This document shows positions 10,813-47,070 of a stretch of DNA of 50,477 nt, piece after piece. Position 1 is the first letter of the stretch. Every line of letters begins with the position of its first letter. A model generated the notes under the pieces. That model saw only the letters and a list, made by a program, of their open reading frames with translations. It was not told the DNA's origin and made no database searches. Made by a program: the position numbers and the translations under genes. Source of the stretch: Escherichia phage EC125; sequence record ON185586.1; one strand, written 5' to 3'.

Positions 10813-11129
10813 AGCGGGCGGTTTACCTGTTTTACCTCAAGCCGCCAACTGACGCACAATTAGAGGCCGTCGGCCTATCCCGTTCAGACTACGAAGGGGA
10901 GGAGCCGCCGGAGGTAATTTTTGATGAATCAATGTTTCAATCTTGGGATCTGTTTTGCGCTATGCAGACGCAATGGAGATCGACTAGCGGCAGTGTGTAT
11001 GGGTTCGACTATAACGTTTTGCCTATGCTTTTTGACATTTACAAGATTGAGGATCGGGAGATGGCGCTAAATGATTTGCGCATCATGGAACAAAAGGCGC
11101 TAGAAATGATTCATTCAAACAAAACATAA
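10495..11129 (+). CDS. tail assembly chaperone fusion (gpGT-like) via programmed -1 frameshift
   Basis: heptamer AAAAAAC at 10803-10809; the -1 frame is open from there to 11129 and includes the 65-aa track ORF 10932-11129. Confidence 0.55.
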
Positions 11130-11150
11130 GCGCCGCGAGGCGCTTTTTTA
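11129..11150 (+). terminator. intrinsic terminator / attenuator before tape measure gene
   Basis: AGCGCCGCGAGGCGCT then TTTTTT. Confidence 0.5.
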
Positions 11151-11168
11151 ATATCTGGAGGTTTTAAA

Positions 11169-13850
11169 ATGGCTGAAAAATACGCTGGCCTAACGCTAGG
11201 CGTTGACGTGTCGCAGGTCAACAATGCTGTTAAATCATTGCAGCAATTCAAGAAGGCAAACGACGACGCAAAAAAAAGCGTTAATGAATTTGTTGATTCT
11301 GAGGTTGTGGCCCGACAGCAAGCAAAACAGCTTGCCGAAGAACTGGCGCGCCAGAAAGCAGAATTTAAGAAAATCCAGGAGTCAATTGATCCCACTGCAT
11401 CAAAGATGGATAAGCTGCGAAAGGCAGCGACACAGCTTGATGCGCTATGGAAAAAGGGCGTTGTTCCTGATCAGACTTTTTTTGAGCTTGGGGCAATTCT
11501 TGAGACGCAGCAAAACAAGCTGATCGCAACCAAAAAAGCGATGACAGAGGAAGGCCGCGCGGCGCTTGAGGAATCAAAGAACAAGGCGCGTGCAGCGGAA
11601 GAGGCTAAAAAATTCGTCCAGGCTTTGCGTGAGCAGGAAGAAGCAGCAGGAAAAAGCAAGTCTGAATTGCTGGAAATGAAAGCGGCACAGCTTGGAGTTA
11701 GCCAGGAGGCAGCACCTTACATCGCAAGGCTGAAAGAGCAGGAAAAGCAGATCCAGAAACTTGGGATTTCTACAGGCCAATACAAACAAGCAATGGCGCA
11801 ATTGCCAATGCAGATCACAGACGTGGTGACTTCACTTGCTTCTGGTATGCCAGTTTGGTTGGTCGCAGTCCAGCAGGGTGGACAGATCAAGGATTCTTTT
11901 GGTGGTGCATCCAATGCTTTAAAAGCGTTGCTATCTTTCCTGAATCCGGTAAACGTGGCGTTTGGCTTGCTTTCCGGCACGCTGGCAATTGCTGCATATA
12001 ATGCCTACAAAGCACAGACAGAGTTTGAGGCAATTAAAAAAACCGTTCAGGAAACAACAGGCTTGACTGGTGATTTTGCCGAAAAGATTGCTACCGGAAT
12101 CCAGGAGCTTTCCGACAAGACAGGCGAAAGCGCCGAAGATCTGGCAAAGGCTTACATCACCACGAAAGACGGCGTGAGCGAGGCGATTAAAAAACTGGTT
12201 GACGTTGGCATGACTTATGATGACGCAAAAAAGAAAGTCAACGAGTACAAAGGCGCATCTAGCTTTGTCAGCTTGAATAACGAAATTGCAAACCACAAAA
12301 ACAAAGTCCTTGAGTTGGGCGATTCGTGGTATGAGGTTTTGAAAGCGAAGCGTGATTACGCTTCCCCGTCCGGCGGCCTGTTAGGTAAGGAGCTTGGCTA
12401 TGTTAACCCTATGCTTAAGTTTGCACTTAACACTTATGAAGACATTGGAAAGGTCGTAAAAGATGCGAATAAGGACATGGCTGAACGAGCGGAGCGAATC
12501 GACAAAGAAAACCTGGCCTTAAACAGAGTGCGCGCAGCACAGGAGGCTTTAAACAAAGCCATTGAGGATCAGAAAAATGTGGCGCGTTCGGCTGATGAAG
12601 AACTGAAAAAGCGAGCGGCTGAAAACGTGGAGTTTAGGCGCAAAGAGCTTGAGGAAATCAAGAAGCAGGAGCAGAAAAAGAAAGAGGCTAAAGGTGGAAT
12701 AGTTCGCGGCCCGACTGAGCAGCTTGATAAAGAGTTGTACGTTTTAAAAGCGCAACTGGAGATGCTTAAAGAGCATCGCACTGTTAACGATGTTATTTCT
12801 CGCCAGCGTAAATCATTATGGAGTATCGAAAAGCAGATCGAGATCCTGGAGGAAGCGCAGAGCAAGCGTAAATTGACCGGAGCGGAACAGGCGCTACTAA
12901 ACGAGCAAAAAGCCGTTCTTGAAATGGCAAGGCAAAAAGCGGAGCTAGGGGATCAGATTGTTTTACAGGAGCGCAAAAACAAGCTGGAGCAAGATAGCAT
13001 TAAGTTTATCCGTGAAACTCAGGCGGCTATTGATGTGCTTGGCCTTAAGCAACTTGGCTACACTGAAAAGCAGATCGAGCGTGAGCTAGAGTTACGCAAG
13101 CTGCGCACCGACTACGAGGCGCAAGGCGGAAGCGTTAGCGATGAAGTTTTTCAGCAAATGGAGGCGAAACTTAAGCAGTATTATCAGACACAGGATGAGG
13201 TTCAAGGCAACTGGTTGGCAGGAGCAAAAAACGCATGGGAGATGTTCGCGGAAGATGCAAACAATGCCTATGGCAATGTTCAGCAGATCGCAAGCGAGGC
13301 GTTAAACGGCCTTACAAACCAATTAGCGAATTTTATCGCTACTGGCAAGGCAAACTTTAAAGACTTCTCGACGGCTATCATCAAAATGATTATTCAGATG
13401 ATCACGAAAATGGTCGTCTTTAATGCGTTATCTGGCCTGATGGGTGGTCAAACCTGGACGATGGGGAGCTTGCTTAAGAATATTGGCGGATTTGCTGGCG
13501 GTGGATACACTGGAGACGGCGGGAAGTATGAGCCAGCCGGAATTGTCCATAAAGGTGAATTTGTCATGACGAAGGAGGCGACGCAGCGTATCGGGGTAGG
13601 AAACTTGTACCGCATGATGCGAGGCTATGCTAACGGCGGCGTTGTTGGTAGTTCCGGCTATACTGGCGGTGGCGCTGTAACTGGTGGAGCACCTCAATTT
13701 AACATCGGCGGGATTGATGTTAGCATCACTAACGGAAACGATCCGAAGGGCATCGAAACTGGTGTTAAGATGATCTTTACTGATATGATTAAACGTTCCT
13801 GTATGCAGGGCGGCGATGTTTACGAATTTGTTATGAGCAAGCGAGGTTGA
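11169..13850 (+). CDS. tail tape measure protein
   Basis: 893 aa; long coiled-coil-rich N-terminal region, Gly-rich C-terminal region; canonical position. Confidence 0.85.
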   Translation: MAEKYAGLTLGVDVSQVNNAVKSLQQFKKANDDAKKSVNEFVDSEVVARQQAKQLAEELARQKAEFKKIQESIDPTASKMDKLRKAATQLDALWKKGVVPDQTFFELGAILETQQNKLIATKKAMTEEGRAALEESKNKARAAEEAKKFVQALREQEEAAGKSKSELLEMKAAQLGVSQEAAPYIARLKEQEKQIQKLGISTGQYKQAMAQLPMQITDVVTSLASGMPVWLVAVQQGGQIKDSFGGASNALKALLSFLNPVNVAFGLLSGTLAIAAYNAYKAQTEFEAIKKTVQETTGLTGDFAEKIATGIQELSDKTGESAEDLAKAYITTKDGVSEAIKKLVDVGMTYDDAKKKVNEYKGASSFVSLNNEIANHKNKVLELGDSWYEVLKAKRDYASPSGGLLGKELGYVNPMLKFALNTYEDIGKVVKDANKDMAERAERIDKENLALNRVRAAQEALNKAIEDQKNVARSADEELKKRAAENVEFRRKELEEIKKQEQKKKEAKGGIVRGPTEQLDKELYVLKAQLEMLKEHRTVNDVISRQRKSLWSIEKQIEILEEAQSKRKLTGAEQALLNEQKAVLEMARQKAELGDQIVLQERKNKLEQDSIKFIRETQAAIDVLGLKQLGYTEKQIERELELRKLRTDYEAQGGSVSDEVFQQMEAKLKQYYQTQDEVQGNWLAGAKNAWEMFAEDANNAYGNVQQIASEALNGLTNQLANFIATGKANFKDFSTAIIKMIIQMITKMVVFNALSGLMGGQTWTMGSLLKNIGGFAGGGYTGDGGKYEPAGIVHKGEFVMTKEATQRIGVGNLYRMMRGYANGGVVGSSGYTGGGAVTGGAPQFNIGGIDVSITNGNDPKGIETGVKMIFTDMIKRSCMQGGDVYEFVMSKRG

Positions 13851-28918: not shown

Positions 28919-30916
28919 ATGATTCTAAATATCGAAAAACAAATATCAGCGTTAGGCGAGGCAGTAATAAAAAGCATCCAAGAGCGATTCACGGTTGGCA
29001 ATATAGTGCCTTATCCTTATCAGTGCGTTGCGTATGCTGAGATCGCAAAGCGCATGAAAAACTATGAGCATCCTTTCTTTGTTAAGGCTTCTGTGTCGGC
29101 TGGCAAAACATTGATGTTTGCGATGGTTGCGGCGCAATGCCGCAAAATGGGATTGAAAATGATGGTCCTTGCTCGCCAGGCTGAAATTGTTGATCAGGAT
29201 TCGGAAGAGATCAGCAATCTTGGAGTGCCAAACTCAATCTATTGCGCCGGACTGAAAACAAAAAGCGCATACTTTCCGATCGTGGTCGGTTCTGAGGGCA
29301 CTGTAGTAAACGGATTGTTTAAGTCGTTAGGTGATTATGTTCCGCACGTTATCGGTATTGATGAATGTCACCAGGTGGATTGGGAGGATCTCGCGGACGC
29401 GATAGAAAATAATGAATCTTACCAGCAGATGACCACTAAGAAGGATTTGCCTGTACTGATTGGAGAAGAACAGCAATTTGATTCCAATGGCGATCCAATG
29501 TTCGGAACAGGGCGCACACAGTACACCGTAATAATCATGGAAATGATGCGTAGGTGTCGCGAGGCATACGGGCACGAATTGCGAATATTCGGCATGACTG
29601 GATCTGAGTTTCGCGGCGTGGTTCCAATACTGGTTGAAGATAAGAACAAAAAGGGATTCTGGCGTGAGCAGGTGACTAACATAGACACAAACTACTTAAT
29701 CAAATTCGGTTCGGTAGTGCCAACAAACTTCGGCGACGTAGGCGACCTGGGTTATGACCTTTCAGAGTTCGAAGCCAGTAGCGAGGATGGCGTTTCAGAC
29801 TTTGACGCTAAAACATTGCGCAAGATGGAAGAAAAGATCCATCAAGACGCAACAATGACACAGAAAATCATGGCTAAAGTCCATGAGATATGCAAAGACA
29901 GGAACGGAGTTTTAGTTACATGCGCAGGGGAAAGGCACTGCAAGGAGGCCGCCGCCGCACTGCCGCCAGGCGTTGAATACAGGATCATAACTGGCAAGAC
30001 TGGAGATAATCAGCGTAAAGAGTGGCTGAGGGAGGCATACGAGGGAAAAGTAAAATACATCTTCCAGGTACAGGCGCTTACCACTGGCGTTAACGTTCCG
30101 TTTTGGGATACTTCTGTAATACTGAGAAAGATAGGATCTCTAACATTGCTTATCCAGCTTTTGGGGCGCGGCATGCGACTGCTTAAGCAATGGCACATTG
30201 AGCAGGGATTCAAGAAAAAAGATCATCTTGTATTGGATTTTGCAGGTACTATGGATGAGTTAGGTGATTTGTATTTCGATCCAATCCTTGAGCAAGCGCA
30301 ATTCCAAAAGAGATTTACAAACGGGAAAGAGCCTAAGACTTGTCCGATATGTGGAACGCTAAACAGCTTTTACGCTCGCCGATGTATGCACGTAGACGAT
30401 AACGGGAAGCGATGTGAGCATTTTTGGACTTACAGAATTTGCGAGGACCAGGTAGATCAGAGAACGAAAAAGATAATCAAGCGCGGTTGCGGAACAAAAA
30501 ACGACGTAGTGGCGAGAGTATGCCGTTGTTGCGATATTTCTCTTGTCGATCCTAACGAGAAGTTAAGCGGTAAGCACTACACCAAAAACGATTGGTGCAA
30601 CGTTAAATCTTTCCGCGTTGATATGACGAAAAACCAGAAAGGAATTATTTTTTGCTATGAGCTTGAGGCCAACGGCGACACGTTCAAGGCATACGAAAGA
30701 TTTTTCCCTGAGTCAGAAAGCAACATTTGCCGGACGATATGGAGAAAAATAGCATTGCAGCACATACCGGATCGCAAGATTGCTGGTATGGTGGCGAGCT
30801 ATAGAAATGCTCGTAAAATAATGTCATACGCTCATCACATCATGCCGCCTGTACGCGTAACGCATCGCAAAAACGGCAAAGGTGAGGATAACATTGCAAA
30901 ACGGGAGTTTGTTTAA
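28919..30916 (+). CDS. SF2 helicase with C-terminal zinc-ribbon region
   Basis: 665 aa; Walker A-like SAGKT, DECH box, Cys clusters near C-terminus. Confidence 0.8.
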   Translation: MILNIEKQISALGEAVIKSIQERFTVGNIVPYPYQCVAYAEIAKRMKNYEHPFFVKASVSAGKTLMFAMVAAQCRKMGLKMMVLARQAEIVDQDSEEISNLGVPNSIYCAGLKTKSAYFPIVVGSEGTVVNGLFKSLGDYVPHVIGIDECHQVDWEDLADAIENNESYQQMTTKKDLPVLIGEEQQFDSNGDPMFGTGRTQYTVIIMEMMRRCREAYGHELRIFGMTGSEFRGVVPILVEDKNKKGFWREQVTNIDTNYLIKFGSVVPTNFGDVGDLGYDLSEFEASSEDGVSDFDAKTLRKMEEKIHQDATMTQKIMAKVHEICKDRNGVLVTCAGERHCKEAAAALPPGVEYRIITGKTGDNQRKEWLREAYEGKVKYIFQVQALTTGVNVPFWDTSVILRKIGSLTLLIQLLGRGMRLLKQWHIEQGFKKKDHLVLDFAGTMDELGDLYFDPILEQAQFQKRFTNGKEPKTCPICGTLNSFYARRCMHVDDNGKRCEHFWTYRICEDQVDQRTKKIIKRGCGTKNDVVARVCRCCDISLVDPNEKLSGKHYTKNDWCNVKSFRVDMTKNQKGIIFCYELEANGDTFKAYERFFPESESNICRTIWRKIALQHIPDRKIAGMVASYRNARKIMSYAHHIMPPVRVTHRKNGKGEDNIAKREFV

Positions 30917-31335
30917 TGGCTATAACTGATAAAGGAGATTATCTTGAGTTTTACGAAAGAGATCCAACCGACACGAGAAAGGAAGTTAATCACCAGATAG
31001 ATAGCTTTCAGTGGTTGACTTATGCTCATCCTTATTTGCTAGCGTGGCATACGGTAAACGAGAATGAGAAGTCGAAAGTAACGGCGATGATTGATCAGCA
31101 GTCCGGCTTGGTTAAGGGGGTAAGCGATTTCATCATCCTGATTGGTTCAAACGGAAAATACCCCTTTGCAGCGATTGAGATCAAACGAGTTAATAAATCA
31201 GGCAAGGGGAAAGCATCACCAGTCAGCGATGAACAAAAGGCTTTTTTGCGTCGCGTTCGCAGTTTAGGAGGATTCGCTGCGGTCGCCTACGGATTTAATC
31301 AGTTTAAGTTAGCTATTGAATACATGCTTAAATAG
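30916..31335 (+). CDS. VRR-NUC domain nuclease
   Basis: 139 aa; ...SDFIILIGSNGKYPFAAIEIKR... PD-(D/E)XK-like core; ATGA overlap with helicase stop. Confidence 0.65.
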   Translation: MAITDKGDYLEFYERDPTDTRKEVNHQIDSFQWLTYAHPYLLAWHTVNENEKSKVTAMIDQQSGLVKGVSDFIILIGSNGKYPFAAIEIKRVNKSGKGKASPVSDEQKAFLRRVRSLGGFAAVAYGFNQFKLAIEYMLK

Positions 31336-31351: not shown

Positions 31352-31414
31352 TGGCGCGATGGATTGCGCCATAATTCAATAACACGAGATAGCTTTTAAT
31401 AGCGGAGAAATGAA

Positions 31415-32140
31415 ATGGCTAAAGATATTTTAGATAAAGACACCCATGACGCATTCGTTAGCTTTGAGCAGTTGGAGAGAGAAACATTTATAGGGAATGC
31501 CCTTGCAACTGGAGGCCATTACCAGGCAGTAAAGCCAAATCAATATTATAAGGTAAGCGGCAACCGATACGCTGGAAGCACTACGCCGGACGTTGTGCGC
31601 GATATGTGGAGCACGCCTCAAGAGATCGTGGAGTGGATGGAATCAGAATTTGGTGAATACGATCTCGACGCGGCAGCAAGCCATGAAAACGCAGTTTGCG
31701 AGAAGTTCTATAGCAAGGAAACAAACTGCTTAAAGCGTTGGTGGGGTAGCAACAAGCACGTATGGCTTAACCCGCCGTACAGCAACCCAACTCCATTTAT
31801 CAAGAAAGCAATTGAGCAAATGGAGCACAACAACCAAATTGATGTTTTGTTGCCATCCGACAACTCTACAGCATGGTTTTATGAGGCGCAGAAAAACGCG
31901 GCTGAAATCATCTGGATCACTGGCGAGGTTTACGAAGAGGGGGGAGTGGAATATTCCCGCACCGGAAGAATCGCCTTTGTGTCTGGATTGACTGGCGAGC
32001 CTGTACAGGGCAACAATAAGGGAAGCGTGATTTTTGTCATGCGCAAACTTAAAGAAGGCGAGGAGCAGAAAACGCGATACGTTAAGATCAGCGATATTTG
32101 CCCCTCTGTAACCGAACGCCGCGCGCGCAAACGGAGCTAA
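31415..32140 (+). CDS. dam: DNA N6-adenine methyltransferase (phage Dam family)
   Basis: 241 aa; NPPY motif (WLNPPYS); DLDAAAS motif. Confidence 0.8.
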   Translation: MAKDILDKDTHDAFVSFEQLERETFIGNALATGGHYQAVKPNQYYKVSGNRYAGSTTPDVVRDMWSTPQEIVEWMESEFGEYDLDAAASHENAVCEKFYSKETNCLKRWWGSNKHVWLNPPYSNPTPFIKKAIEQMEHNNQIDVLLPSDNSTAWFYEAQKNAAEIIWITGEVYEEGGVEYSRTGRIAFVSGLTGEPVQGNNKGSVIFVMRKLKEGEEQKTRYVKISDICPSVTERRARKRS

Positions 32141-32144
32141 CACG

Positions 32145-32402
32145 ATGAAAAAAGAGAGAAGCGTTTATTTAAATGAAACTGGCGAGTGGTTGTTATTTCG
32201 CGCTATGGTGTGCGATGCACTTGATAAAAACCCTAACGTGAAAAAGATGATTGATTGCGATCCGTGGGAATTTTCAAGCGCATTAGATATGAGCTTTGAT
32301 GAGACAAGGAAACTCCCTCTTGAAAAATGGCACGAACAAATCAGAAATGATATGCAAGAGTTTGTAGATTCGTGGAATTTTCAGAACGGAATGATACACT
32401 AA
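32145..32402 (+). CDS. hypothetical protein
   Basis: 85 aa; GGAG RBS. Confidence 0.5.
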   Translation: MKKERSVYLNETGEWLLFRAMVCDALDKNPNVKKMIDCDPWEFSSALDMSFDETRKLPLEKWHEQIRNDMQEFVDSWNFQNGMIH

Positions 32403-32421
32403 TAGCACTTTTTGTTAAAAC
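32401..32421 (+). promoter_or_regulatory. 21-bp element with promoter-like module
   Basis: overlaps stop TAA; hairpin CCCGGC...GTCGGG; CATAAT at fixed distance. Confidence 0.55.
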
Positions 32422-32477
32422 GCCCGGCATTTTGTCGGGCATAATTATTTCATCGAAACGAACGTGAGGAAATGAAA

Positions 32478-32657
32478 ATGGTAGTATATAGCAAGAAAGC
32501 ATTTGACCAGGCGCAACAAGCCGCACGCGAGGCGGTAAAAGGTGGAACGAAAAACAATATGCAGCTTGATTGGGGCGCTGCAATGATTCTACTTCGCGTT
32601 GCATATGGTCACTACCCATTAGAATTTGCGGAGGCATATTATAAGCATGAAGGTTGA
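32478..32657 (+). CDS. hypothetical protein
   Basis: second in-frame ATG chosen for RBS spacing; about 59 aa. Confidence 0.4.
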   Translation: MVVYSKKAFDQAQQAAREAVKGGTKNNMQLDWGAAMILLRVAYGHYPLEFAEAYYKHEG

Positions 32658-32889
32658 GCAAGGTAGAGAGGCGGTATGGAATCACGCTAAAGAATGCGGA
32701 ATAGCCGACGATATAAAGAAGATCGCGCAATACTTTGATATTGCAGATGTGAGCATAATTAGCGGAGATAAGATGACTTTCCTCAAGGAAAGGCCGCGAA
32801 AAATGGTAAGAGTTCCAGCAGTTCCAACAAAAATTGATTTCAAAGAGGCAATGGCTAAAATCCGAGAGCCTCGCAAATATTATAAATGA
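32647..32889 (+). CDS. hypothetical protein
   Basis: about 80 aa; track start is TTG; start uncertain. Confidence 0.4.
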   Translation: MKVEQGREAVWNHAKECGIADDIKKIAQYFDIADVSIISGDKMTFLKERPRKMVRVPAVPTKIDFKEAMAKIREPRKYYK

Positions 32890-32983
32890 GGATAGTTATC
32901 ATGTGGCGCTTGTTTGTTCTACCGTTACCCGTTATCATCGCTGTTACAGTTATGTACCATATAGTGATGAGATAGGTAGCAGA

Positions 32984-34099
32984 ATGAAAAATGTAAAAAT
33001 TACAGATGAGCAATTCAAGATCGAACGGGCGGCGGGTAAGACATATAAACAGATCGCTCAAGAGTACGGAATGAATGTGAGAAGCGTCGAGCGTCGCGCG
33101 GCGCGACTTGCAAAGCAAGGCCAAGTATCCACAATTGGAGCGCCTGGTTTTGGCGTTCATGGTGAGTCAGTAATGACTGACAAAGAAGGCAACATAATCC
33201 TAAAGTGGACTAAAACCAGCAAGGATAAAGAGCAATTAGAAGCATTAATGCGCGCAGCAATGGAGGCATTTAGCGAGGAAGTGCCGCGATTAGATCCGGT
33301 TCCATTACAGGAGCGCGACTATAACGAAACGCTTTCCTTGTATCCGATCTTTGACATGCACTTAGGCGCTATGGCCCATAAGCACGAATGCGGCGAAAAT
33401 TGGGATACTGCCACAGCAGAGCGCGTTATGAATAACTTTATCGACTATGCTTTAATGTGCGCACCGGATAGCGAAAAGGCTGTCATCCTGATTGGTGGCG
33501 ATATGCTGCATAGCGACGGCCTGGAGGCGGTTACACCTGCAAGCGGTCACGTACTGGATCAAGATAGTCGATATGCAAAATTGGTTTACGTTGCCATCCG
33601 TGCAATGCGACGCGCAATCAATAAAATGTTGTTAAAGCATAAACATGTTGAAGTCCAGATCGTAGAGGGCAATCATGACCAATCAGGAATGATTTGGCTA
33701 CGCGCAGCAATGGCGGCAGCATATGAAAACGAGCCGCGCGTTTACGTTGATGTTTCCCCTCGCGTTGTGCACCACACGCAATACGGAAAAACTTTCCTTG
33801 CGTACCATCACGGGCACACAGTGCGTAAACCGGAGGCTTTGCTAATGATGTGCGCGTCAGATTGGCGGGAGGACTTCGGAAACTCAAAAACGATGTATGC
33901 GCACGTAGGGCACTGGCATCACCAGACCGTGACAGAAACGTCGCTTGGCATCGTTGAGGTGCATAGCACCCTGGCGGCAAAAGACGCATACGCAGCGCGC
34001 GGTGGCTGGCGATCTCTACGCCGTGCGGCGGTTATCATTTACGACAAAGAGCATGGAGAGGTTGGGCGATTTGTTCACTATCCAGAAATGATGAATTGA
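32984..34099 (+). CDS. calcineurin-like metallophosphatase with N-terminal HTH-like region
   Basis: ATG at 32984; motifs IFDMHLG, GGDMLH, GNHD; N-terminal ...KTYKQIAQEYGMNVRSVERR... Confidence 0.7.
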   Translation: MKNVKITDEQFKIERAAGKTYKQIAQEYGMNVRSVERRAARLAKQGQVSTIGAPGFGVHGESVMTDKEGNIILKWTKTSKDKEQLEALMRAAMEAFSEEVPRLDPVPLQERDYNETLSLYPIFDMHLGAMAHKHECGENWDTATAERVMNNFIDYALMCAPDSEKAVILIGGDMLHSDGLEAVTPASGHVLDQDSRYAKLVYVAIRAMRRAINKMLLKHKHVEVQIVEGNHDQSGMIWLRAAMAAAYENEPRVYVDVSPRVVHHTQYGKTFLAYHHGHTVRKPEALLMMCASDWREDFGNSKTMYAHVGHWHHQTVTETSLGIVEVHSTLAAKDAYAARGGWRSLRRAAVIIYDKEHGEVGRFVHYPEMMN

Positions 34100-34244
34100 T
34101 GAATTTTTATTTAAATCAATGACAAATTAAATCAAAAACTTGCAAAGGGGCGGCGTTTGTCGCCTCTTTTTTTTGTTTAATTTTTTACCATGTACGTTTA
34201 TCATGCGGTCAATATATTGACTTTAATTAATATGGAGAATAAAA

Positions 34245-34460
34245 ATGAAAGATTTTATTAACGCAGCTACCGCTGGATCTGGCGGTTCATCTATCGCAAG
34301 CGCCGCTACAGGGCAGTTAACCATTGCTATTGCCAGCTTTGTTTTAATGGCTGCATTCGGTGCATGGGGCGCTTACCTTCGCTGGCGTGATAGTAAAAAA
34401 TTCCACGAGGCGATCGAAAAAGGTGATATTCAAAAAGCTATTGAAATCAGGGGCAAGTAA
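34245..34460 (+). CDS. holin (putative)
   Basis: 71 aa; hydrophobic segment and charged C-terminus; directly upstream of endolysin. Confidence 0.6.
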
Positions 34461-34951
34461 TGAGCATAAAGAACAGGGTAGCGGCGGCGGCCTTTGGCGT
34501 TGCGGTTGCCTTGACTTCTCCACTTCTTGAAGAGATCGAAGGGGTAAGATACAAGCCATACAAAGATATTGCTGGAGTATGGACGGTTTGCGCAGGAATC
34601 ACCGGACCAGATGTTATCCTGGGGAAAACGTACACTAAAAAAGAGTGTGATGCTTTGTTGGCTAAGCATATCCAGGTTGCTAAAAAGGAAGTTGACAAGC
34701 AAGTTAAGGTTGATATTCCTGATAGTATGCGTGCAGCAATGTACTCATTCACTTACAATGCAGGTGTGGGAGCTTTCAGAAATTCAACAATGCTGAAACT
34801 CATCAACCAGGGGAAATTAAACGAGGCTTGCGATCAGCTTTATCGTTGGACTTATTACCATAACCCAAAAACAGGAAAGCGCGAGAAGTCTAAAGGCTTA
34901 CTTAACAGGCGCAAGGTCGAATACAAATATTGCACAATGGATCTGAAATGA
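34460..34951 (+). CDS. endolysin (lysozyme-like muramidase)
   Basis: 163 aa; lysozyme-like sequence; TAATG overlap with holin. Confidence 0.8.
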
Positions 34952-35343
34952 TGAAGAAATTTTTAATCGCACCAATCGCAATGGCGGTGATCTTGTCTGG
35001 ATGTTCAAGCGTTACGCCACTGACCGGATTAATCGGCAGTAAGCCGGAAATCACAGCGCAGGCTGGCGCGGAGAACGTGAAGCAGACAGTTGGCATTACA
35101 GCAAGGCAGGACGCCAGCACAAAACAGGAAACCACAATAAAGGAATCTGCGGTTGACAAGGTGGACACGTCCAGCAAGAAGGATTTCACAACATCAACTA
35201 TTCAGGCCAATACCATCAAGGCAGACAAAATTCAGGTCGTGCAGGGTAATAACGGCAGATGGTACGATCCGGTAATCATATGCGTGGTTGTGTTAATTGT
35301 GCTGATTTGTCTTTACTGGAGAGAAAAGAAAAAGGAGGCTTAA
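34948..35343 (+). CDS. unimolecular spanin (T1 gp11-like)
   Basis: N-terminal lipoprotein signal (LSGC) plus C-terminal transmembrane segment; ATGA overlap with endolysin; followed by terminator. Confidence 0.65.
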
Positions 35344-35358
35344 TGCCTCCTTTATTTT
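35332..35358. terminator. bidirectional terminator between lysis cassette and leftward early block
   Basis: AGGAGGCTTAATGCCTCCT flanked by A-run and T-run. Confidence 0.55.
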
Positions 35359-35582
35359 TATGCGTCGGGCCACATATGAGTTTCGTTTGTTGGCTTGTTC
35401 GATTCGTCGTACTGCCTTACTTCAATGCTGCAAGTGTCGCCGTACATTTCTGCAATCTTGCGCTCATTTTCAACCGCCGATTGCTCACTCCAGCCTGAAT
35501 CATTATCGTAAACTGTCGGGATTTCAGAAGAAGATCCATTTGCATGATTGTATACGCGAACTACTAAAAACTTGCTGGACAT
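35358..35582 (-). CDS. hypothetical protein
   Basis: about 74 aa; internal ATG chosen after AAGGAAAAA. Confidence 0.45.
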   Translation of the reverse strand: MSSKFLVVRVYNHANGSSSEIPTVYDNDSGWSEQSAVENERKIAEMYGDTCSIEVRQYDESNKPTNETHMWPDA

Positions 35583-35645
35583 AATTTTTCCTTTTTTGTT
35601 GGTTCGTTTCGATGAAACAAATATACCCGACACAAGGTCGGGAGT

Positions 35646-35666
35646 TTTAACAAAAAATGCTATTCC
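35646..35666 (-). promoter_or_regulatory. 21-bp element with promoter-like module (leftward)
   Basis: minus-strand reading AATAGCATTTTTTGTTAAAAC, hairpin, TATATT. Confidence 0.5.
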
Positions 35667-35780
35667 ATACGCTTTACTGTAACCAATAACACACCATCAT
35701 CATTGCATAAAACGTGTTCAGTGGTGCTAAAAGCTCGCATATCTGAATAAAGTAGCGTAAGTAAAGCATGAATAAAATCA

Positions 35781-36176
35781 TCATGTGATATTGAATTTAC
35801 GGCGCAGTGCTTCAAGATCTTGTCTATTAGCTTTTGCCTGCAACAATTCATCATCGCCCATCTCCCCTATTCTAGCCATATCCCTGATCCAGTCGTTGCG
35901 CATACCATCCAGGCTATAAAATTCGAATCCGAAAGGCCGCTTTGACGATCCTTTGGACCAGTATTTACCGCATACCCCATCTATATAGCCAGCCGTCATC
36001 ATTCTTGCGCAAAATTCCTTAGATGCAAGGCTGGCGAACATTCGCGGAGTAAGTCCGGCGGCCCGTGCGAGCCGCTCACATTCTCTATGCTGATAGATAA
36101 ATTTGGCTATGTGCTGCCTGTTAAACCAGTCGTATGACTCACACCATTTATACAGATCAAGCAAAAACATAATCAT
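35781..36176 (-). CDS. hypothetical protein
   Basis: 131 aa; ATGA overlap with upstream gene. Confidence 0.45.
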   Translation of the reverse strand: MIMFLLDLYKWCESYDWFNRQHIAKFIYQHRECERLARAAGLTPRMFASLASKEFCARMMTAGYIDGVCGKYWSKGSSKRPFGFEFYSLDGMRNDWIRDMARIGEMGDDELLQAKANRQDLEALRRKFNIT

Positions 36177-37753
36177 CCCAGCAGTATTGGATTGACAAAA
36201 ATAACACCATTAATCACACAAACATAATTTCTCTCTTCCAGCATTGGCAGTAAGTGCCCTTCTATCCTTTTCATTACGCCAGCCTGACCAACGAAAGGTT
36301 TTACCTTTCTCGCTGATTCGTACAGGGCGCGGATATTCAGAATCCCTTTATTAGCCTTGCCGTGCCTCGTGATCAATTCAATCAATTTACCCATTTCAGC
36401 ATCATCACCAGCATAACCAGAAGCATTGGCGGCGCTAATGTATGTTTTGCTCAATTCCTGAAACATGATCAACGCCTCTTGCATTGTTTCCACGTCGATC
36501 TCTTTCGACTTCTGCGGGTATCCGGCAGGATTAAACCAGTTACGGATAACATGCAGGACGGAAGCAAGCCTGATCACCTGTTTATCAATTTTACCCAGCG
36601 CACCGCGTAACATTGTATGAGAATACTTTCCTCCGTCTGCAAGATGCGGTTCCATATCCTGGCGAGCAATGTTGAGCACTCGCATAGCTGAACGGCTTAT
36701 TTTCAGCGATATATTTGATTCGCTCATGATGTTATGCACCAATTGATAATATTGGGCTTTCAATTCAGAATCCACCGCCTCATAGGTAGAATCACCATTT
36801 TCATCAATGAATGAGCGACGGCCTAAGAATGATTCCTCTCGGACCAACAAAAAACGCTCACTAACACCGATTCCTCGCGATCCAGCGTCCATGATTCCGC
36901 TTATCGTTTCATCCTGGGCTATGACGCTCATACATCCAAGCGCGCGAAAACTCATATTATTGTCAGCATTAGCACGGGCAATTGATACGTGACCATTATC
37001 CCACGCCTTAAGCACTAACTCACTGTTAGTCTTCCTTTCGCTATTTGCATAGGTCAAGCCTAACAGACTGTTAATACTTGTTGCTTCATCAGATATTACG
37101 GCAAAGTTACCTTGCTTGTTGTTGATTTTCGCCAAGCCTTCTGGAGTTGTATCTGAAACAGGAAAAGTTATATCACACATTTTTTCCAGCTTTTCCTCCA
37201 GATCCTCTTTTTCCTGGTATAGAGATTCCATATCAGCGCCGGATCTTTCGCTTTTCATCTCCTTTGCAAGACCTGCCAGCTTTGCCTGTATTTTCTTTCT
37301 TTCCTTGCGGCGTTGCTCGTTGATCTTCTCAACTTCCGCAATCATCGGAGCAATAGCCATGCTGTTGATCGCAGATTTACCAGTTGACGGCGGCTGGCTT
37401 GTAACGACGTAAAGCGCAGTCGGCTGATCGGTTCCGTGATAGTCAACCGTAAAGCGTCCAAGCATAGCGGCAGAAATGCAGCCGATAAAGTGCATGTAAG
37501 CCGATGATTCAGGGAATTGAACGGATCGCGCAATGCTGCGTGATAACTTGCCGACAACATCAATATCATTACCAAGAGAAATAACGGGGTAGCGATCGTG
37601 ACCGCTATTCACATCCTTTACGTCGCCCCAAAAGCTGGACGACTGGCGATAGCCGTTAGCCTGAATTGATACGCGAACTGGCGAAAGGTTCTGGCTTTCA
37701 GCCATAGCGATTATTTGTTGTGGAGTTAATTTGTTCGTTTCTAATGAAAACAT
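36173..37753 (-). CDS. large hypothetical protein with deviant P-loop (possible DUF3987-type replication NTPase)
   Basis: 526 aa; ...SQPPSTGKS...; AGGAG RBS; family assignment from memory only. Confidence 0.45.
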   Translation of the reverse strand: MFSLETNKLTPQQIIAMAESQNLSPVRVSIQANGYRQSSSFWGDVKDVNSGHDRYPVISLGNDIDVVGKLSRSIARSVQFPESSAYMHFIGCISAAMLGRFTVDYHGTDQPTALYVVTSQPPSTGKSAINSMAIAPMIAEVEKINEQRRKERKKIQAKLAGLAKEMKSERSGADMESLYQEKEDLEEKLEKMCDITFPVSDTTPEGLAKINNKQGNFAVISDEATSINSLLGLTYANSERKTNSELVLKAWDNGHVSIARANADNNMSFRALGCMSVIAQDETISGIMDAGSRGIGVSERFLLVREESFLGRRSFIDENGDSTYEAVDSELKAQYYQLVHNIMSESNISLKISRSAMRVLNIARQDMEPHLADGGKYSHTMLRGALGKIDKQVIRLASVLHVIRNWFNPAGYPQKSKEIDVETMQEALIMFQELSKTYISAANASGYAGDDAEMGKLIELITRHGKANKGILNIRALYESARKVKPFVGQAGVMKRIEGHLLPMLEERNYVCVINGVIFVNPILLG

Positions 37754-37805
37754 TCGTTAGCTTCTCCTTTGTGGGCCGTAAATTTTAACGGCCCAATACT
37801 ACCCC

Positions 37806-37826
37806 GTTTTGTCAAAAAGTGCTATT
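37806..37826 (-). promoter_or_regulatory. 21-bp element with promoter-like module upstream of 526-aa gene (leftward)
   Basis: variant with TTGACA; hairpin GGGCCG...CGGCCC; TAAAAT. Confidence 0.5.
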
Positions 37827-38043
37827 TGATCCGCTCTATTGCAACCAGGAGTCGATCAGGCTGGCGGTCGCTGTAGCATTCTCCTGTAATCCCATCCTTA
37901 AACGTAAAGTAAAGCGCCTTATGATATGAAAAACCAATCAGCCAACCTACCGCCGTTTTTTTGATGGGCCTGACTATATCGCCAGGCTTGAAAGTCTTTG
38001 TGGTAGAATGCGTTACTTTGTAACGGTTTTCACTGTTTATCAC
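37822..38043 (-). CDS. hypothetical protein
   Basis: 73 aa; apparent GTG start overlapping upstream stop. Confidence 0.4.
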   Translation of the reverse strand: MINSENRYKVTHSTTKTFKPGDIVRPIKKTAVGWLIGFSYHKALYFTFKDGITGECYSDRQPDRLLVAIERIK

Positions 38044-38426
38044 AGATATTTGCCCTCAAACAGATAACAGCCGCCAGCAGAGAATCCGACCTCTTCACGG
38101 TACATGTTCCAGCGGTCGCCGCACTCATCAAAAACATAACCCGCAACGCTTCCAAGCGGTCGCCCTTTCTCGATCTGGTATCGCTTGCCCTGCTTAAAGT
38201 GCTTTTTGCACGGCATGTTATGATCTACAAACGTGCAAAGAACGGTCTTTGTGTTAATGGAGCGGTAATCATCTCGGTTTGCTGGAAGCCAACGGCTACC
38301 CTTAACAAGCGTCTTAACCTGGAACTCTTCCACCTCGATCATATCATTACTTCCTGCAATCTTCTGATAAACCGTTTTAAAACGGCCTTTCATCAATACG
38401 TTGGTTTCATTACAGATAACATTCAT
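38040..38426 (-). CDS. hypothetical protein
   Basis: 128 aa; AAGGAG RBS. Confidence 0.5.
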   Translation of the reverse strand: MNVICNETNVLMKGRFKTVYQKIAGSNDMIEVEEFQVKTLVKGSRWLPANRDDYRSINTKTVLCTFVDHNMPCKKHFKQGKRYQIEKGRPLGSVAGYVFDECGDRWNMYREEVGFSAGGCYLFEGKYL

Positions 38427-38480
38427 GATTAGATCTCCTTTGTTTGTTCGATGTGATTATGCCAGGTTTTTACACCTGGC

Positions 38481-38500
38481 TTTTAACAAAAAGTGCTATT
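38481..38500 (-). promoter_or_regulatory. 21-bp element with promoter-like module (leftward)
   Basis: overlaps stop of C5-MTase gene; hairpin CCAGGTG...; CATAAT. Confidence 0.55.
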
Positions 38501-39206
38501 TTGAGTTTGACTCAAAGACTGCGCGAGCAAAGCCGCGCGGAGTGAGGGAGCGGATCATCTTTGTGCGCGATGACTTGCCGCCAGTTTTGGCCCAGCCTGG
38601 ATTATCTTTGTCTTCCTCTTTCGGCAGGATTAAAGCGCGTGGAGGAATAACAAAGCCGTTGCCAGTCCAGAGGCACGTTTTCTTAAAATAGCGATCACGC
38701 GCCGGAATAATATCAGGGAAGTCGGGATGTTTATCATCTTCCGGCAGATAGCCAGCGTAATCGCACGGATGGAACGTATAATCAGGCTTACGCCATAACG
38801 TTGACAACTTGCCAACCGGATTTTCGATCATGTAAGGAACACCGAAATAATCAGCTATATCAGCCGCGATTCTGCAAGTGTCGGCGGCCTCATCCTGGAA
38901 CGATGGATTCTCAAGGCGTTTTTTGACCCAATGGCGAGATCCGCTATTTGCAAGGTCGGTGCAAGGAGGGAACGCCATAATAAAATCAGGATTGCCCCAC
39001 TCATTATTGATTGCCTTAACATAAAAAGCATCATCAATCCAGACGTTAACGTATTCGATATTCTCATGCTGTATGCGCACTGACTGGTAATCACCGTGAT
39101 CGCCACCGTCAGCATTAAAGCAAATGCACTTATATCCATTATCAGCCCAATCTTTAACGGCTTTACCAGATCCATCAAATAGGGAGAATATTAAACCTTT
39201 ATACAT
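38496..39206 (-). CDS. DNA cytosine-C5 methyltransferase
   Basis: ATG at 39206 chosen for RBS spacing; motifs LFDGSG (SAM binding), FPPC (catalytic Cys), ENP (ENV-like). Confidence 0.7.
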   Translation of the reverse strand: MYKGLIFSLFDGSGKAVKDWADNGYKCICFNADGGDHGDYQSVRIQHENIEYVNVWIDDAFYVKAINNEWGNPDFIMAFPPCTDLANSGSRHWVKKRLENPSFQDEAADTCRIAADIADYFGVPYMIENPVGKLSTLWRKPDYTFHPCDYAGYLPEDDKHPDFPDIIPARDRYFKKTCLWTGNGFVIPPRALILPKEEDKDNPGWAKTGGKSSRTKMIRSLTPRGFARAVFESNSK

Positions 39207-39216
39207 CGTCATTACC

Positions 39217-39441
39217 TCAAAACGGAAAACAGCGCGGACAACCAGGATCGAAATCGCATCCACAATCATTAACAATCATAGTGGGATCTGCAAATATTGC
39301 GCTTGATTCAAGATCCATATCCATATCACCTAAAGCCTCATCAAGACTCTTAATTTTATATGCCACTTCAAGCGCCGCCTCTTTATTTAGTCCGGCATCT
39401 TCTGCCATTTGAAGGCGCTCAAAAAATCCGTCTTGACTCAT
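39217..39441 (-). CDS. hypothetical acidic protein with C-terminal Cys cluster
   Basis: 74 aa; D/E-rich; ...CGCDFDPGCPRC... Confidence 0.45.
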   Translation of the reverse strand: MSQDGFFERLQMAEDAGLNKEAALEVAYKIKSLDEALGDMDMDLESSAIFADPTMIVNDCGCDFDPGCPRCFPF

Positions 39442-44056: not shown

Positions 44057-44132
44057 GTTTTCTCACTGCGGCGCACGTCGCCGCATGGATCGGATTGTTT
44101 TCCTACCTGTTTAGCTTTTATTGAGGTGAGAG

Positions 44133-44285
44133 ATGGCTACCTGGATTTTGCTGATTCTTATGATTGATGGCGGCGTTGACAATATCGAAATGAATAGCCA
44201 GCAATCTTGCATTGAGGCACGAGAGCAGATCAAGAACAACAACAGGTTTTATGCGTACACTCACACGCTATGTATTAAGAAATAG
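44133..44285 (+). CDS. small membrane protein (50 aa, not in ORF track)
   Basis: ATG after GAGGTGAGAG; MATWILLILMIDGG...; stop TAG lies inside motif copy at 44281. Confidence 0.35.
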   Translation: MATWILLILMIDGGVDNIEMNSQQSCIEAREQIKNNNRFYAYTHTLCIKK

Positions 44286-44301
44286 CACTTTTTGTTAAAA
44301 C
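44281..44301 (+). promoter_or_regulatory. 21-bp element with promoter-like module
   Basis: overlaps stop of 50-aa ORF; TATAAT 21 nt after TTGTTA. Confidence 0.55.
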
Positions 44302-44354
44302 TCAAATGTGGGTCCAGGTATAATGGCCTCACTTTCAACGAAGGAGATAAAACG

Positions 44355-44576
44355 ATGTACATTAAAAAGAAGATGAAATGCGTTTCCGTTAACTATGCTT
44401 GCTCTGGCATGTTCAAGCCTGGCGAAATCTATACGGCGCAAAAACTGAAAACATCAACCGGATCTTTTTACGTGAGCAATAGTAAGGGGCATCGCATGTT
44501 CCTGAACGGCGGCGAAGGCACTAAGGTTATGGCACACGCTATGGTATTGGCTGAATTTGAGGAAGTGAAACAATGA
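44355..44576 (+). CDS. hypothetical protein, tandem paralog 1
   Basis: ATG after AAGGAG; shares ...FYVSNSKGHRMFLNGGEGT...AEFEEVK pattern with next ORF. Confidence 0.5.
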   Translation: MYIKKKMKCVSVNYACSGMFKPGEIYTAQKLKTSTGSFYVSNSKGHRMFLNGGEGTKVMAHAMVLAEFEEVKQ

Positions 44577-44818
44577 TCATTGAAAACAATTTTCTTTGCG
44601 TTAAGAGCAATAGACCATTCTTCACACCTGGCAAGGTGTACCAGGGCAAGAAGGACACAAGAGATGGTCACTCTTATCATGTTCACTGCAACAACGGATA
44701 CAAGTTTTACCTTAACGGCGAGAATGGAACTGAGATTGTTGCGTTTGAAAACGTAGTTGCCGAGTTCGAGCAGATTACAGACGCGGAATTTGAGGAAGTG
44801 AAAGATGAAAACAAATAA
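44573..44818 (+). CDS. hypothetical protein, tandem paralog 2
   Basis: 81 aa; ...YHVHCNNGYKFYLNGENGT...AEFE...AEFEEVK; ATGA overlap. Confidence 0.5.
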   Translation: MIIENNFLCVKSNRPFFTPGKVYQGKKDTRDGHSYHVHCNNGYKFYLNGENGTEIVAFENVVAEFEQITDAEFEEVKDENK

Positions 44819-45026
44819 GCGCGTCAAGCACAGGTTTACTGATAACCACGGCGACGCGATTGATGTATACAAGTTCGGCGATCGCGTGTTTATTGATGGC
44901 ACGTTTGAAGGTGGTCGTAGGCCGGATTTTAGGTCGATACTTACCGTTGACCAAGTGCGCAAGCTGGCAGATAAGTTAAATGATCTGGCAGATGAAATAG
45001 AATACAAGCAAATCCATTTTAATTGA
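44805..45026 (+). CDS. hypothetical protein
   Basis: 73 aa. Confidence 0.45.
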   Translation: MKTNKRVKHRFTDNHGDAIDVYKFGDRVFIDGTFEGGRRPDFRSILTVDQVRKLADKLNDLADEIEYKQIHFN

Positions 45027-45037
45027 TAGGTTTTATA

Positions 45038-45748
45038 ATGAAAAAATACACTTTCGAACTATGGGGCAATAAGTACGAATTTACGACAAGCAAGCCTATT
45101 GTTGTGTGCGATCTCGACGGCACACTATCGGACGGATCGCATCGTTTGCATTTGCTGCCAACTGAAAACTTACACCTTACGGAATCGTGGAGCGAATTTA
45201 ACAGGGCCGCCGCCGGAGATTCACCGATTAAAAGCACGATCGCGGTTATTAACGGTTTATGGGTGTCGGGATTTGCCATCGTCATCTTGACCGGACGCAG
45301 CGACGAGGTTCGCTACGAAACCTGCAAATGGTTGAATGAGAACGGCGTGAAGTTTGACGAAATCATCATGCGCCGCCAGGATGACAACCGAAAGGATACG
45401 GTTATTAAAGAGGAAGCCTTGCGCGCTATTTGCCTGGACAACATTGTTTGCGCCTTTGACGATTCGCCGAACGTGGTTAAGCACTTCCGCAGCTTGGGGA
45501 TCACAACCTATCAGGTCACGGAATACGACAAGCCACACGCTCACATACAATCTCACGGCGTGGAATCAATAAAGATCACGAAGCGCGCCCGATTCGTCGG
45601 CAGCAAAGACAGCCTGGTTAATGCCAGCTTTATCAAAGGCAAGGTTTATGATGTTAATAGCCATGATAAAAACCGATTCTTTTTGTGGGATGAAAAAGGT
45701 TTTGGCTGGTGCTTTGAACACGACGACGGCGATTTTGTTAATGCGTAA
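45038..45748 (+). CDS. HAD-superfamily phosphatase (putative nucleotidase / polynucleotide 3'-phosphatase)
   Basis: ATG at 45038; motif VVCDLDGTL (DxDGT), later ILTGR and FDDS; about 236 aa. Confidence 0.55.
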   Translation: MKKYTFELWGNKYEFTTSKPIVVCDLDGTLSDGSHRLHLLPTENLHLTESWSEFNRAAAGDSPIKSTIAVINGLWVSGFAIVILTGRSDEVRYETCKWLNENGVKFDEIIMRRQDDNRKDTVIKEEALRAICLDNIVCAFDDSPNVVKHFRSLGITTYQVTEYDKPHAHIQSHGVESIKITKRARFVGSKDSLVNASFIKGKVYDVNSHDKNRFFLWDEKGFGWCFEHDDGDFVNA

Positions 45749-45767
45749 TAGCACTTTTTGTTAAAAC
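45747..45767 (+). promoter_or_regulatory. 21-bp element with promoter-like module
   Basis: overlaps stop of HAD phosphatase; hairpin GGGCTT...AAGCCC; TATAGT. Confidence 0.55.
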
Positions 45768-45822
45768 ATCTTAACGGGCTTGCGGTATAGTAAGCCCATC
45801 AACAACAAGCGAGGATTAAATC

Positions 45823-46086
45823 ATGGCTAACAAGATCGAATTTTTCAAAGCGGTAGACATTATTGATGGCGCTCCTAGCTTCTTTGCCATCCATTCCATT
45901 GACGGCAAGGATATTGGGTACAACGTTATCCGTCGAGATGGAATCTCAAAACTTAGCGATCTGGTAGGGAATATTGTGTCAAACGGGAAATGCGCATGGC
46001 CCGATTCGCCACGAGAGCCACGCCGCCGCGACATGGTAGAGCCTGTTCTGCTTTACACTCTGGTAGTAGAAGGAGAAAATAAATGA
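45823..46086 (+). CDS. hypothetical protein
   Basis: 87 aa; GAGGA RBS; preceded by motif-type promoter. Confidence 0.5.
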   Translation: MANKIEFFKAVDIIDGAPSFFAIHSIDGKDIGYNVIRRDGISKLSDLVGNIVSNGKCAWPDSPREPRRRDMVEPVLLYTLVVEGENK

Positions 46087-46327
46087 TTTGGTTACTTGCT
46101 TTTTTGGTTGTTTTTCTTTACATTTAAGGCTTGTTTACGTTCCGCGCGTTGGTGAAATATTCTGACGCGACAGACAAAGACGATAAAATCGTTCTCGCTT
46201 TCTGGTTTGTTTGGGTGTGGTTAGCAATTTACGAGATCATCAGAGACAAACAGAAATTTGAGTGGTGATTCTTGCTATGGCGCATTCATGCAGTGCGCCA
46301 TGTTGAGAAAACCTAAATGGGGAGACG

Positions 46328-46477
46328 ATGCGTAACTTTGAAAAAATCATTACCAAAAAGAAGCGTCGCGGGTACGATGAGCATGTGGAGCTTGTGAAAA
46401 AGCAACGCAAGAAGCGCAACGAAGACAAGAAGCGCGGGAAAAAATTTAATGCGATTTTTCGCTATGGAGATCATTAA
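46328..46477 (+). CDS. small highly basic protein (49 aa, not in ORF track)
   Basis: MRNFEKIITKKKRRGYDEHVELVKKQRKKRNEDKKRGKKFNAIFRYGDH; GGAG 3 nt upstream. Confidence 0.3.
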   Translation: MRNFEKIITKKKRRGYDEHVELVKKQRKKRNEDKKRGKKFNAIFRYGDH

Positions 46478-46479
46478 TC

Positions 46480-47070
46480 ATGAAGCGAGACATTATCATC
46501 CTTAATGGGCCGCCAGGTTGCGGGAAGGACACTATTGCAGCTTACCTAACGGGCCATCGTTACCCAGCGGTTAAGGCGTCATTCAAACAGCCGATGTTCG
46601 ATATTGCGTTTTCCATGCTTGGCCCGACTCGATATGATGAGTTTATTGACCTGTACAACGACCGAGAGCAAAAAGAAAAGCCTCAAGTTATCTTAGGCGG
46701 CAAGTCACCTCGACAATTCATGATCTGGATTAGCGAGGATGTAATGAAGCCAGTCTTTGGGGAGCAGTATTTCGGGCGTCGAATGGTTGAAAAGATTAAC
46801 GAGATGTACCGAGATTTGGCGGTTGTGATCAGTGATGGCGGATTCCCCGAAGAAATCAAGCCGCTTGTTAAGGCAGGGCATGAAGTGCATATTTGCCGAT
46901 TGCATCGCGACGGCTTCACGTTTGCTGGCGATTCGAGAGACTACATTGACCTGAGCGGTTATCACTATAGAATCCATCACTATGACTTCCACTTGCAGGA
47001 CGGCAAGCCGGAACTGGCTGTAAACGAGATCGTCAATGCTGTCAAATGGAAGCACACACAGATTAAATAG
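46480..47070 (+). CDS. P-loop kinase (resembles T4 gp1 dNMP-kinase family; nucleotide or polynucleotide kinase)
   Basis: 196 aa; Walker A GPPGCGKDT; family assignment from memory of the GKDT-type P-loop. Confidence 0.5.
   Translation: MKRDIIILNGPPGCGKDTIAAYLTGHRYPAVKASFKQPMFDIAFSMLGPTRYDEFIDLYNDREQKEKPQVILGGKSPRQFMIWISEDVMKPVFGEQYFGRRMVEKINEMYRDLAVVISDGGFPEEIKPLVKAGHEVHICRLHRDGFTFAGDSRDYIDLSGYHYRIHHYDFHLQDGKPELAVNEIVNAVKWKHTQIK

Follow-up and report, generated by a model that had tools for sequence, protein, structure and literature searches.

A Dam-type adenine methyltransferase and a small Dcm-like cytosine methyltransferase encoded by Escherichia phage EC125

Escherichia phage EC125 (ON185586.1; the whole stretch of 50,477 nucleotides that was analysed is called the window below) carries two stand-alone DNA methyltransferase genes of different chemistry, one for a phage Dam-type N6-adenine methyltransferase of 241 residues and one for a small Dcm-like C5-cytosine methyltransferase of 236 residues. 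We consider it probable that both enzymes act on the phage's own replicating DNA, the first at GATC and the second at CCWGG, and thereby spare these sites from restriction. For EC125 itself the two target sites are inferred, and so is protection from restriction as the function that was selected.

An 8.5-kb region of the window is 100% identical to Escherichia phage EC195 (ON185588.1, 50,477 bp) and about 99% identical to the phages swan01, tonn, tuinn and orkinos (Drexlerviridae, Tempevirinae, Warwickvirus). In these Warwickvirus relatives the two genes are labelled dam and dcm, or simply twice 'DNA methyltransferase'. In the GenBank record of EC195 the first gene is a 'DNA adenine methyltransferase' and the second a 'hypothetical protein', a label that can now be corrected, and the coordinates of both are identical to those of the window open reading frames (ORFs). 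The initial annotation had placed two methyltransferase ORFs at 31415..32140 and 38496..39206, with the NPPY and DLDAAAS motifs in the first and the FPPC, ENP and LFDGSG motifs in the second, and both are confirmed by the translations and the GenBank coordinates. A dam gene together with a dcm-like one is commonplace in annotated T1-like phages; the finding is already known from the annotation of close relatives and from the literature. For this phage it matters little, the activity of the C5 enzyme having been demonstrated for a close orthologue (see below). Users of the phage should nevertheless expect its DNA to contain both N6-methyladenine and 5-methylcytosine (5mC), with consequences for cloning, restriction mapping and nanopore base-calling.

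Two methyltransferase genes of phage EC125

The Dam-type gene comprises the following features:

31404..31407, plus strand: GGAG Shine-Dalgarno sequence, 7 nt 5' of the Dam ATG (sequence read)
31415..32140, plus strand: phage Dam-type N6-adenine DNA methyltransferase gene, 241 aa (PF05869, TIGR01712, phrog_111, T1 Dam)
31661..31681, plus strand: DLDAAAS motif, Dam residues 83-89 (translation; same in T1 Dam)
31769..31780, plus strand: NPPY catalytic motif, Dam residues 119-122 (translation; WLNPPYS same in T1 Dam)

The first ORF had been called a Dam-type N6-adenine methyltransferase, and this is borne out by two curated models, whose cut-offs it passes by a wide margin (Pfam PF05869, E 2e-61, 207 bits where 28.1 are required; the equivalog model TIGR01712 phage_N6A_met, 180 bits against 97.05), and by 66% identity to T1 Dam (M.EcoT1Dam, ST20). 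The protein also matches phrog_111. T1 Dam belongs to the same length class, contains DLDAAAS and NPPY unchanged and is encoded at the same place, downstream of a SNF2-type helicase and a small ORF, although T1 is a member of the genus Tunavirus and the window phage of Warwickvirus. Work attributed to Auer and Schweiger in 1984 and later biochemistry reportedly established T1 Dam as a GATC-specific N6-adenine methyltransferase. Judged by its sequence, the window Dam most likely makes N6-methyladenine at GATC as well, as T1 Dam does. When the PDB was searched by sequence for relatives of the Dam protein, no related solved structure came up, only chance matches to snake toxins (E>0.5).

The Dcm-like gene lies on the other strand and has the following features, with S-adenosylmethionine abbreviated as SAM:

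39215..39218, minus strand: GAGG Shine-Dalgarno sequence, 8 nt 5' of the ATG at 39206 (sequence read)
38496..39206, minus strand: small Dcm-like C5-cytosine DNA methyltransferase gene, 236 aa, 711 bp
39165..39182, minus strand: motif I, LFDGSG, residues 9-14, the FxGxG SAM loop (hhalign to HhaI LFAGLGG)
38961..38972, minus strand: motif IV, FPPC, residues 79-82, with the catalytic Cys82 (aligned to HhaI GFPCQ and DNMT3B PCNDLS)
38817..38825, minus strand: motif VI, ENP, residues 128-130, equivalent of ENV, with Glu128 (aligned to HhaI and Dcm ENV)
38679..38684, minus strand: K175-K176, probable equivalent of the basic residues in motif VIII (conservation; DNMT3A superposition in the preprint discussed below)
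38526..38555, minus strand: IRSLTPRGFA, residues 218-227, motif IX-like (hhalign to HhaI/consensus iRrLTPRE)

The start at 39206, which gives the protein of 236 residues, is preferred over an alternative TTG start at 39275 because of the Shine-Dalgarno sequence, which overlaps the stop codon (39217-39219) of an upstream 74-aa ORF, and because of the alignment of the homologues, most of which begin at the equivalent place. The EC195 record uses the same start, while the RefSeq orthologue of swan01 is given a longer start (257 aa, 10437-11210 in its locus) and overlaps the upstream gene.

That this second ORF encodes a C5-cytosine methyltransferase, as the initial annotation had it, is supported by its fold, by the catalytic Cys and Glu and by 89% identity to the orthologue of phage KarlJaspers. 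Scans of the ORF with Pfam and NCBIfam from either start gave no match, and among the 120 close homologues listed none has a precomputed Pfam domain. The protein matches phrog_757 'DNA methyltransferase' with E 1.2e-84. An AlphaFold model built with 20 homologues reached a predicted local distance difference test (pLDDT) score of 85 and a predicted template modelling (pTM) score of 0.86, and a Foldseek search with this model returned catalytic domains of DNMT3A/B as its top 35 matches (best E 4e-6). For profile-profile comparison we used a C5-methyltransferase profile of 82 sequences, made up of HhaI, HaeIII and 80 viral homologues; the HhaI sequence agreed exactly with the PDB and the HaeIII sequence likewise except for the deposited C71S. 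Compared with the phage family by hhalign, this profile gave a probability of 83-90% and E-values from 9e-6 to 1.6e-7, and E. coli Dcm, compared as a single sequence, aligned correctly but without significance. In the PDB the protein and two family profiles met with only sub-threshold matches at the sequence level (E 0.1-0.7); those found with the protein and the close-family profile were all C5-methyltransferases (DNMT3B, M.HaeIII) with motifs I-IV aligned, and the more diverse family profile did worse, drawing in unrelated proteins as well. Fold and profile matches thus assign the protein to the C5-methyltransferase fold.

In the hhalign register F10-x-G12-x-G14 corresponds to F18/G20/G22 of HhaI, P81-C82 to P80-C81 and E128-N-P to E119-N-V. 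A careful alignment, which had been proposed as a check on the catalytic motifs, therefore finds motifs I, IV and VI in register with HhaI. Their conservation shows that these motifs did not match by chance: close homologues all have DGSG, PPC and ENP, and in a homologue set reaching down to 31% identity P130 never varies, while conservation is at least 90% for C82, E128 and N129. K175 is nearly invariant in the family alignment, and K175-K176 precede the last core strand. When the C-terminus was compared alone, IRSLTPR aligned with motif IX (E 0.004); the protein ends 9 residues later. In the AlphaFold model only about 30 residues separate the last core strand from this C-terminal motif, and a C-terminal helix covers residues 224-234. 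G12 of motif I is not conserved in distant members of the family, where DGSG is replaced by DFTG, DYTG, DKST, NKSP or SKSI with the catalytic Cys and ENP retained. One family member (P0265) has SPPS in place of PPC.

The family is large and of uniform size: close clusters number 3030 and those at 50% identity 1166, and almost all have a length of 210-260 aa. Of 50,697 phage records 1498 contain a homologue, among them records of Drexlerviridae, Dhillonvirus, rV5-like myoviruses, phiKO2 and Vibrio phages. One protein of 563 aa (P0236) is a natural fusion of an N-terminal Dcm-like domain with a D12-class N6-adenine methyltransferase (PF02086, residues 303-546), an arrangement that fits a role in DNA methylation.

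Compared with E. coli Dcm and M.EcoRII, which recognise CCWGG and belong to PF00145, the phage enzyme probably works by the same chemistry and may have the same target; in the alignment its motifs IV and VI are correctly spaced. E. coli Dcm has 472 aa and passes PF00145, whereas the phage enzyme has 236 aa and fails it, has no Vsr partner and no detectable QxRxR or GN, and contains a much smaller target-recognition region. The catalytic domains of DNMT3A and DNMT3B resemble the phage protein in the PCxDLxN form of motif IV and in their small target-recognition region, but they are eukaryotic oligomeric CpG enzymes, with 13-18% identity to the phage protein and a TM-score of about 0.5, and the match implies no evolutionary closeness.

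An experimental link to the Dcm-like enzyme is provided by a preprint on retron Ec86 that deals with the 711-bp dcm gene of phage K42, whose genome is 95.4% identical to KarlJaspers (Bas06) (10.1101/2023.08.16.553469). Expression of K42 dcm raised 5mC in the multicopy single-stranded DNA (msDNA) of the retron, as determined by liquid chromatography coupled to mass spectrometry (LC-MS), and a C82A/E128A/K175A/K176A quadruple mutant caused no such rise; K175 and K176 had been picked as substrate-binding residues by superposition on DNMT3A (10.1101/2023.08.16.553469). Phages that escaped Ec86 had lost or silenced dcm, defence no longer worked once CCTGG in the stem of the msDNA had been changed, and 34 of the 35 Ec86-sensitive phages encode a Dcm of the K42 type; BL21 carries this retron (10.1101/2023.08.16.553469). 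The window protein and the KarlJaspers protein are identical at 211 of 236 residues (89%) in a gapless alignment with the same residue numbers, and C82, E128, K175 and K176 are all present in the window protein. The gene order is also the same (Dcm-like gene, 128-aa ORF, 73-aa ORF and DUF3987 helicase), while the 11% of residues that differ lie mostly between motifs II and IV. C5 activity can accordingly be regarded as demonstrated for a close orthologue: K42 dcm makes 5mC and triggers the retron, and K42 is a near-identical strain of KarlJaspers, with whose protein that of the window shares 89% identity.

GATC and CCWGG sites in Drexlerviridae

Site frequencies were compared in about 100 Drexlerviridae loci anchored on the helicase gene, in which the presence of each methyltransferase gene was scored against the observed/expected ratio (O/E) of its candidate site. 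One contig (L109) ends at the helicase and was scored neither as carrier nor as non-carrier.

The window itself contains 308 GATC sites, as many as expected (O/E 1.00). In the 79 Dam-carrying loci the median O/E of GATC is 0.97 (range 0.51-1.16). The 10 Dam-less loci, which all belong to the Rtp-like clade, show an O/E of 0.30 (range 0.17-0.36), and two members of the same clade that do carry Dam have values of 0.94 (L145) and 0.51 (L139).

CCWGG is likewise retained in the window with 127 sites (O/E 1.04), and CCSGG occurs 3 times against 20.8 expected. Loci with an intact Dcm-like gene usually have a CCWGG O/E of about 0.8-1.4, with the Vibrio phage Vc1 as an exception. Several phages without the gene, or with a damaged copy, have almost no such sites: SRT8, which lacks the gene, has 8 CCWGG genome-wide against 65 expected, and IME347, also without it, has 4 against 72, both phages having been isolated on BL21. 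HCF1, whose Dcm-like copy is truncated at both ends, has a single CCWGG against 59.5 expected. The pattern of site avoidance in carriers and non-carriers is a cheap way to guess the targets of methyltransferases.

The assemblies of HCF1 and of an IMG/VR copy of Salmonella virus STSR3 (L131) look rearranged, with the helicase gene split, duplicated or inverted. In both the Dcm-like ORF loses the C-terminal motif, and in HCF1 motif I as well, either by sequencing or assembly error or by real decay. The STSR3 copy was considered as a carrier that avoids CCWGG and was rejected, given its scrambled assembly and a gene truncated as in HCF1; its relative Vc1, by contrast, is a true counter-example.

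Other palindromes in the window are depleted on a broad scale. Of the 64 palindromic hexamers 23 are absent and 7 more occur only once, and in total 516 were observed against 806 expected from base composition. An attempt to read the C5 target from the palindrome statistics of the window alone (4-mers and 6-mers) gave no clean answer, as CG- and GC-containing sites behave alike and T1 is similar.

Proposed role and competing explanations

In the role we propose, the Dam homologue would methylate N6 of adenine at GATC. The Dcm-like protein would work as a pared-down C5-methyltransferase, in which Cys82 attacks C6 of the target cytosine, Glu128 together with K175/K176 holds the base once flipped out and SAM donates the methyl group; the enzyme's target is most likely the inner C of CCWGG. 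With enzymes of its own the phage could keep progeny DNA fully methylated whatever the dam/dcm status of the host or the speed of replication. The genome could thus retain hundreds of GATC and CCWGG sites uncut by enzymes of the MboI/DpnII or EcoRII type, while for nearly all other palindromes the phage would rely on site avoidance. The initial annotation had stated that the specificity of the C5 enzyme cannot be read from its sequence; this holds insofar as nothing conclusive emerges, but the literature and the comparative data point to CCWGG. It had also suggested an anti-restriction role for both enzymes, which receives indirect support from the site-avoidance comparison, while no simple link between gene and resistance was seen in the BASEL study.

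A number of observations weigh against this explanation. The E. coli strains that commonly serve as hosts possess a Dam of their own, and those of the K-12 type a Dcm too. The contrasts in site frequency rest on a handful of independent lineages: the Dam-less loci all belong to one clade, so that the GATC contrast is essentially one evolutionary event. T1, the Rtp-like clade and two Webervirus-level loci have no Dcm-like gene and yet show a CCWGG O/E of 0.8-1.2. Conversely, Vc1 carries an intact orthologue and has 22 CCWGG against 77.6 expected (O/E 0.28). At the DNA level its Dcm-like gene shares about 97% identity with that of STSR3 and about 95.5% with that of HCF1, and the flanks diverge. 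In the BASEL study these methyltransferase genes show no simple relation to resistance against six restriction-modification (RM) systems, and most Drexlerviridae are RM-sensitive. The CCWGG specificity of K42 Dcm was assumed from the host Dcm and is backed only by the msDNA mutants (10.1101/2023.08.16.553469). As to the protein, comparison of the Dcm-like sequence with Pfam PF00145 gave nothing even at E<=1, far from the gathering threshold, and profile alignment located neither the QxRxR of motif VIII nor any counterpart of motif X (GN). Among 32 family members compared with PF00145 only 5 reach E<=1, the best with 0.0067. Because the curated threshold is failed and two classical motifs were not found, the cytosine enzyme is filed in the small phage Dcm-like family (phrog_757, K42 Dcm) and not in canonical PF00145. 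A literature search for methylome data on Drexlerviridae found nothing direct.

Some of these points would also suit an explanation in which the methyltransferases mainly serve transactions of the phage DNA and not the evasion of restriction, for instance by full methylation of GATC, which would spare phage DNA under replication or recombination from nicks by MutH in mismatch repair, or by timing packaging or expression as Dam does for P1 pac. Both genes lie in the replication/recombination module, near helicases, the VRR-NUC protein described below and an exonuclease, and the usual hosts already methylate GATC and CCWGG; the missing link to RM resistance in BASEL points the same way. We nevertheless regard this explanation as unlikely, since Dam-less genomes purge GATC and several genomes without the Dcm-like gene purge CCWGG. 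Such purging in the absence of the enzymes is the signature of site-specific cleavage pressure and not of a regulatory role. T1, moreover, manages without the Dcm-like gene, which is thus dispensable for core replication.

The remaining alternatives concern the cytosine enzyme. It might differ from Dcm in its target, with a very short or relaxed site, or in the group that it transfers, for instance a carboxymethyl group from carboxy-SAM (Cx-SAM), which E. coli makes via CmoA. The room for target recognition is small, limited to the 30 or so residues noted above, the Asn of motif X that would lie beside the transferred group cannot be located, and Vc1 retains the gene yet avoids CCWGG. On the other side, the window has purged CCSGG but kept CCWGG, which accords with a target like that of Dcm, and it was 5-methylcytosine that LC-MS detected on expression of the K42 orthologue. 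The DNA cytosine C5-carboxymethyltransferase CmoX of Synechococcus phage S-B43 (PDB 8yf3) is characterised by SPPC and by Arg350 in place of Asn304 of HhaI, and it is accompanied by a phage CmoA and often by CmoY. The motif of the window protein is FPPC and not the hallmark SPPC, the position of Asn304 is not alignable in it, and the genome annotation lists neither CmoA nor CmoY. That the enzyme departs from Dcm in target or chemistry therefore appears quite improbable to us. More improbable still, to the point of being hardly credible, is that the Dcm-like ORF has decayed to a remnant without activity or codes for a pseudo-enzyme that binds DNA in the manner of DNMT3L. Every curated methyltransferase model failed, the protein is some 100 residues shorter than HhaI (327 aa) and HaeIII (330 aa), motif X is not detectable and the glycine of motif I is lost in distant relatives, all of which speak for this reading. 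However, the catalytic Cys and Glu are conserved across the 1166 clusters at 50% identity, the K42 orthologue is active and depends on those very residues, and truncated copies were met only in a lineage that has purged CCWGG.

Protection of GATC and CCWGG, which we continue to favour, would have its price, as retron defences sense methyltransferases and Dcm triggers Ec86. By analogy with K42 the methyltransferases of EC125 would thus also be a liability, an aspect missed in the initial annotation, and the phage should be sensitive to hosts with retron Ec86 such as BL21. Phages may then face a choice, either to carry the enzyme, keep CCWGG and be exposed to Ec86, or to drop the enzyme and purge CCWGG as in SRT8 and IME347. 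BL21 is dcm-negative as well as Ec86-carrying, and the isolation of SRT8 and IME347 on this strain fits such a trade-off. More tentatively, Dcm-like proteins of about 230 aa could form a distinct minimal structural class of C5-methyltransferases, with KK in the place of QxRxR, motif X lost or fused with motif IX and a recognition region of a few dozen residues, and their patchy occurrence could reflect the Ec86 trade-off; we hold this to be possible but somewhat doubtful. The family, which has neither a Pfam or NCBIfam model nor a solved structure, offers a compact C5-methyltransferase scaffold.

Genes around the methyltransferases

Next to the Dam gene lies the only nuclease-type neighbour of the two methyltransferases:

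30916..31335, plus strand: VRR-NUC nuclease-fold gene, directly 5' of Dam (Pfam PF08774, E 2.2e-10)

Neighbour annotation and profile scans revealed no gene for a cognate restriction endonuclease beside either methyltransferase, so that neither qualifies as part of a type II RM system. The description of both as orphan enzymes holds accordingly, with the VRR-NUC gene forming part of a conserved helicase-Dam arrangement. The VRR-NUC domain has a restriction-endonuclease-like fold of the PD-(D/E)xK type. The succession of helicase, small ORF and Dam recurs in T1, SRT8, IME347 and Vc1, and the small ORF between helicase and Dam is annotated as VRR-NUC in swan01 and Vc1. Because the same arrangement is found across the family, we read the gene as a recombination nuclease and not as a cognate restriction enzyme.

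Further genes around Dam code for the SNF2-type helicase, small ORFs and a phosphoesterase-type exonuclease, and lysis genes are also found in the neighbourhood. The Dcm-like gene is surrounded by small ORFs without known function and the DUF3987 helicase gene. In T1 (44105-47037 of its locus) no Dcm-like gene is present upstream of the DUF3987 helicase, and the HNH endonuclease gene ST8 occupies this place instead.

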